Assembly (NCBI GenBank): GCA_037969075.1
Contig: JBBKWS010000095.1
Location: 1 to 18,664 of the forward strand
DNA from: Bdellovibrionales bacterium
GTDB lineage: Bacteria; Bdellovibrionota; Bdellovibrionia; Bdellovibrionales; UBA840
Direction: 5' to 3'
DNA length: 18,664 nucleotides
Shown in pieces: positions 9,001 to 18,000 of the stretch; within the stretch, counting starts at the first letter, position 1; every line of letters begins with the position of its first letter. The position numbers are program-made.

Positions 9001-12000
9001 ACTTCTCCTTGCTTAAAATCATTATCTTCTAAAAGTAGTAACGGTGGCGTGTCAAGATCATCAAACTGACCTGATTGATTCGCCTTAATAAAGCACCATA
9101 AAAAAAATACGGCCAAACCAAACGCTAGTGGAATTAAAATCACAATTATATTCATTTCATTATCCAAAGAGTATTGCATATTAATACTAGCGAGCTAATG
9201 GGCATTAGTATAGCCGCCGCCAATGGATTGATAAACCCGAGCAAGGCCAAAATACCCGCCAAAGAGTTATACACAAAAGATATTGTCATATTTGAAATCA
9301 AGCATTTGCGTAGTCGTTTGGCAATTGTAATCAAGTGAGGTAAAGACGAAATCCCGCCATTTAAAAAATACACATCTGCCTGCTCTAAACTTAAACTAAC
9401 GTTACCCCTAGTTGATATTCCTACATCGGCGCCTTGTAGGGCCAATACATCATTAATACCATCACCTATCATAATTGAGTTTTTATGATTCTTTATGATT
9501 TTTAGTTTTTCACTAGGGGTCTTGTCTGAAAAAATCCTATCCTTTGGAATATTTAACTTACTTCCAACTTCCAACGCATTCATCTGAGTGTCGCCAGTCA
9601 ATAGATATAGTCTTTTATCTTGCAGCTTTTCAATAGAGCCATAAGTCATTTCTCTTATTTGATCTTCAAATGCATAAGATACAATCTTTAGATTGTCAGC
9701 GTACAGATCAACAATAATTTTATTAGAATTATTGCCACTTTTTTTTAATTGATAAAATACTCCATCAATTGCACCTTCAACGCCAATGCCTATATTTTCT
9801 TTAAAGCCACTTACCGGTAAATCCTTAAACTCTCTCCCCCATGATTTTCTGAAAGCAAAGGCTACAGGATGAGAAGATGTCTTTTCTAGATTTAAAATAA
9901 TATTAGCGTGTTCCGCGCCCGAATCAGTGATTAGTTCTAGTTGACCGTAGGTCAACGTGCCCGTCTTATCAAAAAAAATATTTTTCACTTTATTAAGTTT
10001 ATCAAAAATATTTTGCTTTTTAACAAGAATGTCTGCTCCTCTGGCTCTATGTACTGCCATAGCATAGGCAAGAGGTGTCCCCAAGGCCAACGCGCATGGG
10101 CACGCAACAATCAACAGGGCAAGAGATCTTTGAAACCCCTCTAGAGGATTTATTGGTAAGTAATATATAAAAAATAAAATCGCAACAGTGAAAATAGTGA
10201 AAATCAAATAGTGCGAAGCCTTATCTGATGCTTGAGAGAACGTACCCTTGGTCTTCTTTACCTCTTCAACTTTTTGAATCAATTGGTATAACTGACTAGT
10301 TCTAAATGAGTTAATTGCTTTTACTACAACGCCCTCTGATAACGCTATACTCCCGCTTCCTAACTCCATATCACTATTGAATACTCTTGGTAGGGATTCA
10401 CCGCTAACAAATGATGTATCAAATTCAGCATATGGATTCACTAACGTAGCATCCACGGGTAGCACCATGCCTTGCCTTAAATAAAACTGATCCCCTTTTT
10501 GTATATCTTCCGCCTTAAAGGATACGCCTGTCTCGACTCTGATATATTTCGCGCTATTTACTTGATCGTATAAATTATCAACATAAACATAGTGCTGTTG
10601 TACCCGTCTTAAGAGATACCTAGATGTCAGTATTAAAAAAACAAAGCTAGCGGTAGAATCAAAATATAAAAAATCATATTTTTTTATAAAAATATTGTAG
10701 CATGACAATACAAAGCCCGTAGTTAATGCAACCGCAATTGGCAAATCAATGCTTAATGTTTTTGTTTTTAGTGCGCTGAATGCGTTTTTATAAAAATCTA
10801 AAGAACAATATCCTAAAACTGGTAAAAATAAAAATAGACTCAGAAAAACGAAGGACGTTTTATAGGCGCCCTCTTCAACTCCTGTATATAGCGGAATTGT
10901 GAACAGCATGATGTTCGCTGTTAAAAACCCAGCGACAGCGAGTTTGTTTAATAACCTTTTATTTTCATTTTTTTCTAAAAGAAAGCCCTCCGACTCATTT
11001 TTCAAAAATTTGGCTGTAAATCCGATTTTTGAAATCAAGGCTGTTACTTCATCGACACTTACCTTTGAGTCAACCCTGGCCTCTAATAATGACTGACCAA
11101 AATAAAGGTGAGCATAATGTATATTAGGGTGCATATCTTTTAATTTCTCTAATTTTCCAATACAAGAATGACAACGAATTCCATCTATGTGAAATAGATA
11201 AGATGAAAGCGCTTCTTGTGCTTGTTCCATTGCGACCACCTGAAGTAAGTATAATTAGCTATAAAATAGCATATTGACTATGATTCATATCATATTTCAA
11301 CAAATTGACCGCCACGTTTGCTCTCTTTTTAATCATTAAATATACGTAATGCACAAAAGAGATAAAGTATTGCATCACTCACTTATCAGCGTAAAATACT
11401 TGGATGACAAATACCATACGAGTTGCCTCACTACAGTACTTTATCCGCCCCGTTCGCTCTTTTGATGACTTTGCCCTACAGGTCGAAGCATTGGTAGAAA
11501 CAGCAAAGGATTACAAAGTAAAACTTTTAGTATTTCCTGAATACTTTACTACGCAATTGCTGACTCTTGGCAATATCAAGCGCCCGATTGCAGAGCAAAT
11601 TAGGGACCTTGCTGGGCAAGAAGACAAAACCGTAGATTTTATTGCTGGTCTTTCAAAAAAACATAAGTTGATTATTGTTGGCGGAACACTTCCTGGATTT
11701 AATGAAGACAAAACTAAAGTTTTAAATAAGTGTTATGTGTTTTCACCAGATGGCAGTCAAAACTTACAGGCCAAACTTCATATGACTAGATTTGAAAAAG
11801 AAGAGTGGCTAGTTAGTTCGGGCTCACGCCTACGAATTTTTGAAACAGACTTTGGTAAATTTGCAGTAACCATTTGCTACGATGTAGAATTTCCTGAAAT
11901 TGCCAGAACCGCAGCCCGTCTTGGTGCGCAGTTTTTAGTAGTCCCTAGCTGTACAGATGACCGTCAAGGTTACTTACGAGTAAGATATTGCGCACAAGCT

Positions 12001-15000: not shown

Positions 15001-18000
15001 TGAGCTTGAGATATGGGAGCTTTACTTTGCTAAAAACGCAGATGACCAATTGTTTAAGGATTTAAAAAAAGAATATCTAGGTGCAATAAAATTCGTTTTA
15101 GAGGTTAGTCAGCAAAAAACTCTCATTTGGCATAGACCATGGCTTGAAGAAAGTATAAAACTTAGATCCTCAAATATTCACATTTTAAATTTACTTCAAA
15201 TTATAGCTATCAATGATGCAGACGAAACTTTATTAAAAGAAACTATCGTAGGAATTGCTTGCGGTATGTTAACGACCGGCTAACTTGAATATGTTAAATA
15301 TTTATATAGATGCAGATGCTTGCCCCGTAAAAGATGAAACCTATAAGGTAGCCGCACGTTATAAATTAAAAGTATTTGTTGTGGCAAATTCATATATAAA
15401 TATTCCACTTAGTCCACTCATTGAGATGGTACAGGTCAGCGGGGGCTTTGACGCCGCAGATGACTGGATCGTTGAGCGCGCAGAAAAAGGAGACATTGTC
15501 ATAACCACTGACATCCTTCTTGCTGATCGCTGCATTAAAAATGCAGTCCGTGTCTTGGGACATAAAGGTGTTGAGTTTACAGAAGATAATATTGGTTCCG
15601 CAGTTGCTCAAAGAGAATTAATGGAAAATTTAAGACATATGGGAGAGATGGGCGGCGGCCCTAAACCAATGCAAAAACAGGACCGCTCACATTTTTTAGG
15701 GAAACTCGATCAAATCATTCAAGCCATTCGTAAATCCAGCCCTAAAAACTAGGGCCAGAAAATATATTTATTATGTCTACTCGTTTCTCATAGGGTGATC
15801 GTTCATTAGCTCCACCGGGAGGGCTTCCTCCTCTACAGAAGCGGGCTCTCTGTAGCTGTTACCCACACCTAATGCAGATAGAGTTTCGCTGTTAATTTTT
15901 CCTGTAATTGAAAGTTCGCGGTCCGTTTGAAACTCTCTAATAGCTTGCTGCGTATTAGGACCAACCACTCCGTCTACCCTAACTTTGTAGCCTTCATCTT
16001 TTAGCGCGCTCTGCATGGATCTAACTGTATCAACCTCAACCATACGAATCGTCTTATCAGACATATTGGTATTTTGCATATGCCGCATATCTCTACCTTG
16101 CATATTATGCATATAGTTACTGCCCGAATAGGAGTTATCAGCAGAAGCTATTACTCCTAAACCTGATACCATCATTGCAACCAGTATCTTTCTTTTTGCC
16201 TTCATAACAACTTCTCCTTTAAAAAAGTTTTGTTACTAGCGACTATAATTTAAAGAGATCTAAAAATCCTTTAGAGGTTATGAAGTAAAGCTGAAGAATT
16301 AGTAACACTTGCTACTTTCTGCCTGTGCGAGCCTTGTTTACGACTGCTAAACATATGATATTCTTGACATGCCACTCTGGCTGTAACCACCGCTGCCGCC
16401 TGCGATGAACCTGTTTTGTAACCAAATCTGTTTTGAGGTAATGACGAGTAAATTTTACTGCCTTTAGCAGCCAGGTTCGGCTTGTTATGATTTCGATTAC
16501 TAGTAACTAATATTTCGCCGTCATTGTTGGTAGCAACTACAGATAATACATTAGGAAGCTCGTAGGCCGCCGGGTAAAATCTATAATCTTTTTCGCCCAA
16601 ACGCTTGTTACCTGCTGCTGCCACGATTTGAATACCTAGGCTCTGCGCTATTTTAAAAAGATTTAATTCTTCAGAATTCTTCGTTCTTCCACCGGCAGAT
16701 ATATTTATTATATCTGCTTTTTTGTCTATAGCGTAATGTAAGGATTTTAAAAATGCATTTTGCTGTTCTTTATAGGTCATACCTTTTTTATAAAACTTTA
16801 GCACCATGAACTCATAAGCGACCTCGGGGTCGATTTGAGTAATATTACTTTTTATAACTCCAGCTATATGAGTTCCATGCCCCTCAGTATCCACAACATT
16901 CTTAGAGTTGTCAGAAAAGCTCCAACCACTTACATCATCGACCAAACCGTTTTTATCATCATCTATATTATTTGAAGATTTTTGATTTCCATATCGGTCA
17001 ATCCCTGTCTCGCCAGGATTTACCCACATATTGTTTTTTAGATATTCATGCTGTGTATCTATGCCAGTATCAATAATAGCAATTTTAATCTTTTTAACAT
17101 TTTCAGGGGCAAAAGCTGGCGCCGTAGATGTAATTAAAATTAACATCCCAATCAGTACTGATAGTGCTGTAATAAAGACTTTGCTCAATATAATTTTCCC
17201 AAATTAATCCCAACTTCATTCTATCATGTCTTAAAATAGAAATCGTTAAAAAATGGCTCCCACGGACTTATTAGGAATATTTTTCTAGATTTATTTTAAA
17301 CCATATAAATTGACTAAGCATTGTCTAAAGATGGTGTAATTACGGTAAAAGTATTTTAGAGTGCGCCATGACTAATTTACCTCTAAGTAAACCTAGATTG
17401 CGTGGATACCTTCATCAAGAGGCTTTTTTTGTCGCGCTTGGCGCATGCATTTTACTGTTAGCAAAATGCGAAACTAAAACTCAGTGGGTTACATGTATAA
17501 TATACTCTTTATCATTACTAATACTATTTGGCATTAGTGCCATCTATCATCGTCCGCACTGGCAACCAAAGCAGAGAAAGTTTTTAAAACGATTAGATCA
17601 CTCTGCTATATTTATTGTGATCGCAGGAACCTTTACCCCCGTAAGCGTACTTTCTCTACCCCCTAACATGGGACTCACGCTTGCAGTCATCGCTTGGAGC
17701 TTCGCACTACTGGGAATAATACAATCTGTATTTTGGACTACCGCCCCAAAGTGGCTGACAGCTATGCTTTATATTGGCATGGGATGGCTGGCTTCACCAT
17801 TTTTAAGAGAGTTACATGATGGACTAGGATCTAATAGCTTAGCTCTAATTATTGTTGGAGGAGTTGTTTACACAATCGGCGCCGTATTTTATGCACTTAA
17901 ACGCCCAAAATTAAATCCAATAATATTTGGTTACCATGAGTTGTTTCATTTATTTACTATCATCGGAGCCACCCTACATTTTGTAGTGATCTATAAACTC

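Follow-up and report, generated by a model that had tools for sequence, protein, structure and literature searches.

The window, an 18,664-nucleotide stretch of a contig (JBBKWS010000095.1) from a predatory bacterium of the Bdellovibrionales, contains a gene for a nitrilase-superfamily amidase, here called NIT, and directly after it a gene in which a GNAT-like domain is fused to a PEP carboxylase (PEPC) (Table 1). The fused reading frame, with its Acetyltransf_1 and PEPcase matches, and its 20-nt overlap with NIT had both been reported in a preliminary description of the locus and were reproduced. The overlap is compatible with translational coupling; in other phyla, locus coordinates place the overlap of NIT/GNAT pairs typically at 4 nt.

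Table 1 Genes, domains and key residues of the NIT/PEPC locus, numbered from the first nucleotide of the window
Feature	Position	Strand	Basis
NIT, nitrilase-superfamily amidase, 298 aa	11404..12300	+	ORF, Pfam CN_hydrolase
NIT/fusion gene overlap, 20 nt	12281..12300	+	ORF coordinates
GNAT+PEPC fusion gene, 1000 aa	12281..15283	+	ORF, Pfam
GNAT_L-related domain, residues 1 to ~230	12281..12970	+	Pfam, profile, AF2, Foldseek
Short linker, residues ~231-245	12971..13015	+	alignment of fused, compact and canonical PEPCs
Compact-type PEPC, residues 246-1000	13016..15283	+	Pfam, alignment with E. coli PEPC
NIT catalytic Glu46	11539-11541	+	triad column
NIT catalytic Lys124	11773-11775	+	triad column
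NIT catalytic Cys158	11875-11877	+	triad column
GNAT-like domain, CoA-type motif R116-G-Q-G-I-G121	12626-12643	+	
GNAT-like domain, Glu108	12602-12604	+	
GNAT-like domain, Ala144	12710-12712	+	
GNAT-like domain, Gln178	12812-12814	+	
PEPC motifs: His353 in TAHPTE; GGDKDGHP 444-451; FHGSGGS 716-722; C-terminal MLTTG			

NIT matched CN_hydrolase over residues 6-271 (Pfam, 114 bits), and the Glu-Lys-Cys triad columns were invariant in 22 orthologues. Its best solved relatives were yeast Nit3 (1f89, 95 bits) and mouse Nit2 (2w1v, 83.5 bits), followed by PH0642 (73 bits), a ranking in which its preference for the omega-amidases is modest. NIT scored under every curated NCBIfam cut-off (YafV, for example, 36.8 against 249). 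It has the superfamily and triad in common with the Nit2/Nit3 omega-amidases and the Nit1 deaminated-glutathione amidase, but at the place of A-F-N-L-T-T-G in Nit2 it carries an invariant C-T-D-D-R...R-V-R-Y-C motif of its own, and it has a GNAT-like protein rather than a transaminase as its partner. According to PMC6302742, omega-amidase converts 2-oxosuccinamate to oxaloacetate, and its gene is often part of a methionine-salvage operon.

The PEPC portion of the fusion gene is the sole PEPcase match of the genome (Pfam, 340.8 bits). Residues 1-245 constitute an addition to a complete PEPC, because residue 13 of E. coli PEPC aligns with residue 249 of the 1000-aa protein; relative to canonical PEPC (E. 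coli Ppc, 1fiy), the core is complete from that residue on and the N-terminal domain is extra. By alignment count His138, Arg587, Arg699, Arg713, Lys773, Arg832 and the C-terminal Gly of E. coli Ppc are retained. The fused enzyme nevertheless departs from the canonical form, being shorter by about 90 aligned columns in five blocks, with GGDRDGNP, DIRQE, FHGRGG and RNTG altered to GGDKDGHP, ELRED, FHGSGGS and LTTG, and scoring 342 against a cut-off of 815 with the NCBIfam PEPC equivalog. It belongs to a compact PEPC subfamily (~775 aa, with altered motifs) that is common in the phylum. In the alignment, the linker ties the C-terminal tail of the GNAT-like family straight to the first PEPC helix, and the full-length model had a pLDDT of 74 at residues 231-240 and 87 at residues 241-250.

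The GNAT-like domain matched Acetyltransf_1 at residues 23-142 (Pfam, 32.7 bits, cut-off 20.7), and residues 1-245 were modelled by AF2 with a pLDDT of 89.7 and a pTM of 0.86. Foldseek ranked SxtA first (1.9e-12), then GphF (6mfc, 3.9e-12, TM on target 0.85) and CurA (2ref/2ree, 7e-12 to 1.3e-11, TM on target 0.83); N-acetyltransferases began only at 2.5e-9, the next matches after the GNAT_L domains being N-terminal acetyltransferases of the Ard1/NatA and RimI type. The family profile matched SxtA (3.6e-6) and CurA (2.5e-5) over the full length and next SSAT2 (0.0067) in a local alignment only; no sequence match to malonyl-CoA decarboxylase was reported in this search. The nearest solved relatives are therefore GNAT_L decarboxylase domains of polyketide loading modules, as the preliminary description had it. 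The domain has in common with those of CurA (2ree/2ref), GphF (6mfc) and SxtA (7uci/7ucl) the extended GNAT fold of ~200 residues, an R-x-Y after strand beta5 and a D-P-x-x-x-F before the His/Gln position. Unlike them, it stands outside any polyketide synthase, with no carrier protein nearby, and its partner is a nitrilase-superfamily amidase.

In the profile alignment (CurA numbering from PMC3701320), Thr355, His389, Arg404 and Tyr419 of CurA correspond to Ala144, Gln178, Leu193 and Trp208, and the invariant Glu108 occupies the position of a CurA Ala. Replacement of the Thr/His pair by Ala/Gln, as previously claimed, was thus reproduced; calling the Ala invariant slightly overstated the case, since Ala144 was retained in 91 of 92 fused and 109 of 118 free proteins (Ser in 8 of the latter). 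Gln178 was retained in 91/92 and 117/118, respectively. All 48 invariant positions were kept in both forms, at no less than 96% in the 92 fused and 94% in the 118 free proteins, so the domain is not degenerate. Alignment across phyla showed it to be a member of a very conserved family (mean column identity 59%; 72% for NIT), and fusion has cost it none of the residues conserved in free-standing members.

Because all four key residues are replaced, the decarboxylation mechanism of CurA and malonyl-CoA decarboxylase is probably not used by the domain. According to PMC3701320, the latter enzyme has the GNAT-fold catalytic domain closest to that of CurA and a His-Ser/Thr dyad acting on the CoA thioester; the dyad is absent from the GNAT-like domain, as is the enzyme's N-terminal helical oligomerisation domain. 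A variant mechanism, in which Gln178 polarises a malonyl-type or other beta-carboxy thioester that is still decarboxylated, would link release of CO2 or acetyl-CoA to carboxylase-family enzymes. Such a role is suggested by the nearest solved relatives in sequence and fold, which all decarboxylate, and by PEPC and a RuBisCO-like protein as recurrent neighbours (the latter at three of the 80 loci surveyed and in one read-through protein). It is nonetheless very unlikely, given the four substitutions, the loss of most activity in the CurA mutants H389A, H389N and T355V (PMC3701320) and the lack of any role that it would leave for NIT.

Searches with residues 1-245 gave 99 proteins of 550-1750 aa, 98 with PEPcase and one (560 aa) a CN_hydrolase+GNAT fusion, and 2514 proteins of 134-429 aa (E<=1e-8); both counts agreed with those obtained earlier. 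A NIT orthologue lay directly upstream of the domain or was fused to it at 70 of 80 genome loci, in line with the claim of a free-standing family behind NIT. Eight loci lacked the hydrolase, the number given previously (L005, L007, L023, L042, L043, L054, L057 and L059); one more (L032) had a weak and partial match only, and another (L013) no upstream sequence. For the fused loci L005 and L007, an orthologue was present elsewhere in the genome (68-72% identity), while the genomes of L023, L042, L043 and L057 had no NIT orthologue at E<=1e-20. In the complete genome G235, which carries the fusion, the only NIT match was the NIT half of its 520-aa protein (39% identity). No further conserved neighbour was found around the NIT/GNAT pair at the loci surveyed.

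Fusion of the two partners has also occurred in both orders. Many of the 120 proteins listed from 786 long relatives were NIT-GNAT fusions, and GNAT-NIT proteins of the 513-aa type were found in 55 of 401 genomes. The latter, with GNAT and then NIT on one chain, are homologous to the two members of the pair (35% identity, E 2e-40, for the GNAT part; 38%, E 7e-69, for the NIT part) but represent a lineage apart and farther removed; they retain the Ala and Gln positions and, like the pair, are self-contained genes without conserved neighbours. The NIT half scored highest with the deaminated-glutathione amidase model (62.5 bits), and one such protein (L084) is named bifunctional GNAT family N-acetyltransferase/carbon-nitrogen hydrolase at NCBI. 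The label "YhcX-type" used before is supported at the level of architecture only. Since the domain family has been inherited, lost and fused together with a Nit1/Nit2-like amidase, these comparisons show that NIT and the GNAT-like domain form one functional unit.

The fusion to PEPC is real and spread across the clade: of 401 genomes sampled from the phylum, 14 have it, and it has lasted as the identity of its PEPC part fell to as low as 46%. A tree was built from 19 PEPCs, of which 7 came from the 14 genomes with the fusion, 2 were close relatives without it, 6 were other compact enzymes and 4 were canonical; the fused enzymes fell in one clade with support 99/99. The clade included two unfused PEPCs, that of G226, sister of G307 (95/95), and that of G298; neither the GNAT-like domain nor a NIT orthologue was found in these two genomes. 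The tree thus indicates that fusion to the N-terminus of a compact-type PEPC arose once and that the domain was lost at least twice, each time together with NIT, which shows that PEPC is able to do without it.

These losses bear on the possibility that the domain is an acyl-CoA sensor, binding acetyl-CoA or another acyl-CoA without turnover and regulating PEPC where fused to it and NIT where paired with it, so that oxaloacetate supply would match the acyl-CoA level. E. coli PEPC is allosterically activated by acetyl-CoA, and plant PEPC has a regulatory N-terminal extension. An intact CoA-type motif, a replaced decarboxylase dyad, placement at the N-terminal end of PEPC across a short linker and the departures of the compact PEPC at FHGRGG and RNTG would all suit a sensor, as would the full-length model (pTM 0.84, pLDDT 88.2), which was better than we would expect with a freely hinged quarter of the chain. 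However, the same domain, with its 48 conserved positions, stands free in more than 2500 proteins far from any PEPC, many invariant residues are polar and of the active-site kind (Glu108, Asn95, His96, Gln178), the majority of the phylum's compact PEPCs lack the domain, and PEPC stayed intact through both losses. Sensing is therefore unlikely.

Apart from the fusion, PEPC and the module are brought together in two other, independent gene orders. In G008 a compact PEPC is followed after 9 nt by a 515-aa GNAT-NIT gene, so that this form, although not fused to PEPC, stands directly behind it here; in G148 a canonical PEPC, NIT and GNAT follow in that order, with gaps of 36 and 13 nt. Among the 53 unfused genomes with both, 0.033 adjacencies would be expected by chance (P for two or more ~5e-4). 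In addition, the 520-aa form lies 7.6-8.9 kb from PEPC in three genomes of one genus, and PEPC was found in 67 of 87 domain-bearing genomes against 85 of 314 without the domain, relatedness not being controlled. The link was seen only within this phylum: in the 80-locus survey no PEPC occurred within 7 kb of free-standing pairs outside it. No PEPC match was present in 20 of the 87 domain-bearing genomes, and the unit is therefore not tied to PEPC in general.

A functionally neutral origin, in which a single ancestor by chance carried NIT-GNAT upstream of ppc and the fusion was kept after loss of a stop codon, would fit the single origin, the dispensability of the domain for PEPC and the absence of PEPC from the vicinity of the pair outside this phylum; GNAT domains are, as a rule, promiscuous in what they fuse with. 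It is distinctly unlikely in view of the two additional arrangements, which involve another kind of PEPC or another form of the module, the recurrent proximity in one genus and the persistence of the fusion. The proposed tie to the PEP/oxaloacetate node is thus stronger than the preliminary description knew; its observation was confirmed and its interpretation supported overall.

The reading that we favor, with a probability of roughly 0.45, is that the locus is an operon for the NIT amidase and a bifunctional GNAT-like/PEPC protein, in which the domain is an active acyl-CoA-using enzyme, not of the CurA type, that acts with NIT on a carboxylate amide near the oxaloacetate/asparagine/aspartate node. 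The intact CoA-type motif and the Glu on strand beta4, the site of the general base in ordinary GNAT transferases, suggest a working acyl-CoA-binding enzyme. Together with NIT it would convert a small carboxylate-bearing amide with release of ammonia; an N-acylated or 2-oxo analogue of Asn or Gln is a guess at the substrate. Substrate or product would lie at the oxaloacetate/aspartate/asparagine node fed by PEPC, and the fusion would serve co-expression and co-localisation rather than a requirement of PEPC. Against this reading, a transferase that forms amides and a hydrolase that cleaves them would cancel each other out unless each targets a different bond, Gln stands at the usual place of the GNAT general acid, and the nearest structural relatives in Foldseek are all decarboxylases, not transferases.

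The two enzymes might instead act on proteins, the domain acylating lysines or N-termini, including those of PEPC, and NIT removing the acyl group. The fold matches that follow GNAT_L are of this kind, and the nitrilase superfamily includes the protein-directed Nta1, Lnt and biotinidase. Yet the extreme conservation of both partners is easier to reconcile with one fixed small substrate than with protein targets that vary, and the domain occurs in the 20 genomes without a PEPC match; protein acylation seems highly improbable. Under the favored reading, a conserved domain of acyl-CoA type, whose normal partner is a small amidase, would tie a widespread two-enzyme unit to the oxaloacetate node.

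At the three loci with a RuBisCO-like gene, all in Acidobacteriota, that gene lay directly behind the NIT/GNAT pair.

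The gene for a nitrilase-superfamily amidase (NIT) and the fusion gene, which encodes a GNAT-like domain followed by phosphoenolpyruvate carboxylase (PEPC), are read in the same direction and share 20 nt. Residue 13 onward of E. coli PEPC was aligned with residue 249 onward of the fusion protein, which indicated that the PEPC part is complete and that residues 1-245 are an addition. Its PEPcase match was the single one in the 2.5-Mb assembly (90% complete). The architecture is present in public databases, labelled simply phosphoenolpyruvate carboxylase, and the literature searches turned up no study of the fusion or of what the GNAT/CN-hydrolase unit does. 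The fusion protein is a new domain architecture in which a known enzyme is joined to an uncharacterised, widespread module. The YaiI/YqxD gene starts 2 nt past the PEPC stop and is therefore probably co-transcribed with the fusion gene; no YaiI/DUF188 gene was found behind the fusion in 20 other fused loci (some contigs being counted twice), and it therefore lies outside the unit. Promoter and terminator scans of 11150-16300 gave nothing exceeding the shuffled expectation.

Coordinates of features in the window and in genome loci of relatives (L-numbers)
Sequence	Feature	Position	Strand	Remarks
Window	cbb3-type cytochrome oxidase subunits I and II, joined (CcoN+CcoO)	6878-9022	-	one 714-aa ORF; NF011053, 1169 bits
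Window	heavy-metal P-type ATPase	9152-11239	-	
Window	NIT	11404-12300	+	298 aa; CN_hydrolase PF00795, 114.2 bits
Window	fusion gene	12281-15283	+	1000 aa; GNAT match at residues 23-142, PEPcase across the remainder
Window	compact PEPC part of the fusion gene	13016-15283		
Window	YaiI/YqxD (DUF188) gene	15285-15752	+	
Window	small peptidoglycan-binding protein	15777-16205	-	
Window	subtilase S8	16271-17188	-	
Window	hemolysin-III/PAQR membrane protein	17368-18009	+	
L026	RuBisCO-like gene	7702-8835		
L027	RuBisCO-like gene	6820-7950		
L074	RuBisCO-like gene	7657-8760		
L077	NIT orthologue in two ORFs	2619-3653		154 and 170 aa
L089	divergent free-standing GNAT-like member	2515-3198		227 aa; 34% identity

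NIT and the domain make up a single unit, which occurs as a gene pair, as a NIT-GNAT protein and as a GNAT-NIT protein and has thousands of relatives in many phyla: 2514 short proteins (E<=1e-8), the number also reported in the preliminary description, and 786 long ones. The 80 genome loci compared span at least eight phylum-level groups (judged by record title), and in 70 of them a NIT orthologue was directly upstream of, or fused to, the domain, typically with an overlap of 4 nt between paired genes. Eight loci lacked it, as many as previously said to lack the hydrolase, and one further locus was doubtful and one unobservable. NIT-GNAT fusions of about 510-580 aa were frequent among the 120 of 786 long relatives listed. 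The reverse order forms a separate lineage of 510-530-aa proteins, represented by a 513-aa protein whose GNAT half is 35% identical to the domain (2e-40) and whose NIT half is 38% identical to NIT (7e-69); NCBI names it 'bifunctional GNAT family N-acetyltransferase/carbon-nitrogen hydrolase family protein'. Both halves of these proteins are thus homologous to NIT and the domain; the label YhcX-type is that of the preliminary description. Papers on B. subtilis YhcX describe the protein as a putative auxin-synthesis nitrilase.

Two fused loci without an upstream NIT had an orthologue elsewhere in the genome (68-72% identity). Four genomes of unknown completeness (three Acidobacteriaceae and one Gemmatimonadaceae) carried the domain without any NIT orthologue (E<=1e-20); no substitute hydrolase was found among the upstream genes of these loci. 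In the complete genome G235 the fusion is present and NIT is represented just by the NIT half of a 520-aa protein. These five genomes count against strict dependence of the domain on NIT. When ORFs were clustered at 81 loci with the pair or the fusion and at 24 with the 513-aa form, no further conserved neighbour emerged; the biggest cluster (9 of the 81 loci) was made up of overlapping shadow frames. At L077, an Acidobacteriota locus, the NIT orthologue that precedes the GNAT gene is broken into two ORFs, either by a frameshift or as a pseudogene. The divergent free-standing member at L089 has a HEAT-repeat protein, and no NIT, alongside.

The domain is a GNAT-superfamily member: it matched PF00583 at 32.7 bits (cut-off 20.7), and every fold match was a GNAT protein. 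Its AF2 model was again confident (pLDDT 89.7), and Foldseek ranked the decarboxylating GNAT_L domains of the polyketide loading modules SxtA, GphF and CurA at the top (about 1e-12), ordinary N-acetyltransferases being roughly a thousand-fold weaker. The extended GNAT_L fold was present, with TM on target of 0.83-0.85 to these best matches, and the family profile matched SxtA (3.6e-6) and CurA (2.5e-5) over full length, so that the GNAT_L kinship proposed in the preliminary description was recovered by both fold and sequence. GNAT_L domains of the CurA type sit in a polyketide loading module beside a carrier protein, whereas no PKS or carrier-protein domain was found beside the domain in the window or among the conserved neighbours of the 80 and 24 loci. 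ESM Atlas returned generic 'GNAT family N-acetyltransferase' clusters only, and no curated NCBIfam model was found for the domain, NIT or the 513-aa form.

The GNAT pyrophosphate-binding motif, Q/R-x-x-G-x-G/A, follows strand beta4, and the domain has R116-G-Q-G-I-G121. On strand beta4, Glu108 is invariant in the family and is Ala in CurA. The CoA-type motif is retained, and a Glu occupies the general-base place of GNAT transferases. Along the profile alignment, counted with the numbering in PMC3701320, CurA Thr355, His389, Arg404 and Tyr419 corresponded to Ala144, Gln178, Leu193 and Trp208; the CurA-type His389/Thr355 dyad is absent, and the domain lacks the entire CurA/MCD decarboxylase residue set. 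The earlier claim of invariant Ala and Gln held for the replacement of Thr and His and for Gln178 (208 of 210 members examined), but Ala144 (200 of 210) is nearly invariant rather than invariant, since Ser stands there in 8 of 118 free-standing proteins. That the domain is a variant decarboxylase is quite improbable.

For NIT, the CN_hydrolase fold was accompanied by a Glu46-Lys124-Cys158 triad that was invariant in 22 orthologues and aligned with the Nit3/Nit2 triad, which places it in the nitrilase superfamily. Its family profile scored 95 bits against yeast Nit3, 83.5 against mouse Nit2 and 73 against the next solved structure, and the omega-amidases Nit3 and Nit2 are thus its nearest solved relatives, by modest margins. 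NIT missed the omega-amidase equivalog level (YafV model NF007757, 36.8 against a cut-off of 249), and both NIT and the NIT half of the 513-aa form fell below every curated cut-off; the best model for the latter was deaminated-glutathione amidase. Omega-amidase and deaminated-glutathione amidase act on amides of 2-oxo-dicarboxylates. According to PMC6302742, omega-amidase converts 2-oxosuccinamate to oxaloacetate, and its gene often lies in methionine-salvage operons. Such chemistry and context would fit neighbours of the PEPC and RuBisCO-like kinds, with the qualification that the margins were modest and the curated cut-offs all missed.

We favour, at a probability of roughly 0.45, a reading in which the domain would use acyl-CoA as a working enzyme and would act jointly with NIT, their substrate being a small amide that bears a carboxylate. 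The amide would belong to the oxaloacetate/Asn/Asp node, and fusion to PEPC would bring co-localisation. A glutamine-amidotransferase role, with NIT as an ammonia-supplying subunit as in NAD synthetase, was rejected, the NAD synthase model (26 bits) being among the weakest for NIT. The nitrilase superfamily has protein-directed members; that NIT and the domain form a protein acylation/deacylation pair is very unlikely.

Of 401 genomes sampled from Bdellovibrionota, 87 contained the domain. It was fused in frames of about 1000 aa in 14, free-standing (46-55% identity) in 15, part of a NIT-GNAT fusion in one, a divergent free form in one and fragmentary in two; 54 had only the 510-595-aa GNAT-NIT form, which G235 carries besides the fusion. 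In the databases, 99 long proteins matched residues 1-245, the same number as first reported, 98 of them with PEPcase and one a 560-aa CN_hydrolase+GNAT protein. PEPC was present in 152 of the 401 genomes and was of two kinds: canonical (about 880-940 aa, 790-1009 Pfam bits) and compact (about 770-800 aa), the latter shorter by five blocks that total about 90 aligned columns and having GGDKDGHP, ELRED, FHGSGGS and MLTTG versus canonical GGDRDGNP, DIRQE, FHGRGG and RNTG. The majority of PEPCs in the phylum constitute a compact subfamily with systematically altered signature motifs (window; L090, L091, L093, L094 and L099-L102), and the partner of the domain is of this kind. The fusion PEPC retains TAHPTE, LRAIPW, the second Arg of the Gly-rich loop (FHGRGGxxxRGG) and the terminal Gly, and its GGDKDGHP, FHGSGGS and LTTG were identical in all 15 compact PEPCs aligned. 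It scored 340.8 bits with PF00311 (cut-off 22.4) and 342.4 with the equivalog NF000584 (cut-off 815). Regulation of the compact subfamily was not addressed in the literature searched.

A tree was constructed from 19 PEPCs: seven from the 14 fused genomes, two close unfused, six other compact and four canonical. The fused PEPCs formed one clade (support 99/99). Two unfused PEPCs also fell in it, that of G226, which is sister to G307 (95/95), and that of G298; these two genomes have neither the domain nor a NIT orthologue. These results indicated that the fusion arose once and that the module was lost whole at least twice, leaving PEPC intact. All 48 invariant domain positions were at least 96% kept in 92 fused proteins and at least 94% in 118 free ones, and the domain inside the fusion is thus not decaying. 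A neutral fusion is unlikely.

Two further genomes independently linked the module to PEPC. In G008 a 515-aa GNAT-NIT gene begins 9 nt behind a compact PEPC. The order in G148 is canonical PEPC, NIT and a free-standing GNAT-like gene, separated by 36 and then 13 nt; these arrangements are unlike the fusion, and unlike one another, in gene order, PEPC kind or module form. About 0.033 adjacencies within 1 kb would be expected by chance among the 53 unfused genomes with both genes (probability of two or more, about 5e-4). Module and PEPC were 7.6-8.9 kb apart in three genomes of one genus, and 67 of the 87 domain-carrying genomes had PEPC versus 85 of the 314 that lack the domain, as raw counts uncorrected for relatedness. 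No PEPC turned up within 7 kb of pairs from other phyla. E. coli PEPC is activated by acetyl-CoA, and plant PEPC has a regulatory N-terminus; that the domain is an acyl-CoA sensor for PEPC is possible but doubtful. The full-length AF2 model (52-row alignment; pLDDT 88.2, pTM 0.84, linker pLDDT 74-87) is compatible with a domain docked on PEPC but does not decide the matter.

Outside the phylum, in three of the 80 loci (Acidobacteriota/Thermoanaerobaculia by record title), the GNAT stop and the start of a RuBisCO-like gene of 367-377 aa lie no more than about 20 nt apart, probably as the result of one evolutionary event. The best solved relative of this gene product was 3qfw (5e-66); of the curated families, methionine-salvage enolase scored highest, with 178 bits where 409 are required. 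These matches indicated an uncharacterised clade. In one long relative (P0230, 469 aa) the GNAT-like part runs on into a RuBisCO-large-like one; the final 50 or so residues of the protein look frameshifted, and the read-through is probably due to a frameshift or a lost stop. It is conceivable, though improbable, that the GNAT_L-like domain, with or without the amidase, is a portable accessory module of enolate-type carboxylases that reads or consumes acyl-CoA, gating PEPC and, in some Acidobacteriota, the RuBisCO-like protein. If so, it would be an undescribed regulatory or substrate-feeding device for anaplerosis, in place of the classical allosteric acetyl-CoA site. The first contextual clues to the role of the unit come from the PEPC fusion, the two other genomes with PEPC next to the module, and the RuBisCO-like neighbour; they narrow the annotation problem to acyl-CoA binding, ammonia from Asn/Gln-derived amides and domain-dependent PEPC kinetics.

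Elsewhere in the window, the genes from 15777 to 18009 appear ordinary and without a tie to the fusion. Upstream, the P-type ATPase gene is divergent from the NIT operon and adjoins the ORF in which CcoN and CcoO are joined.
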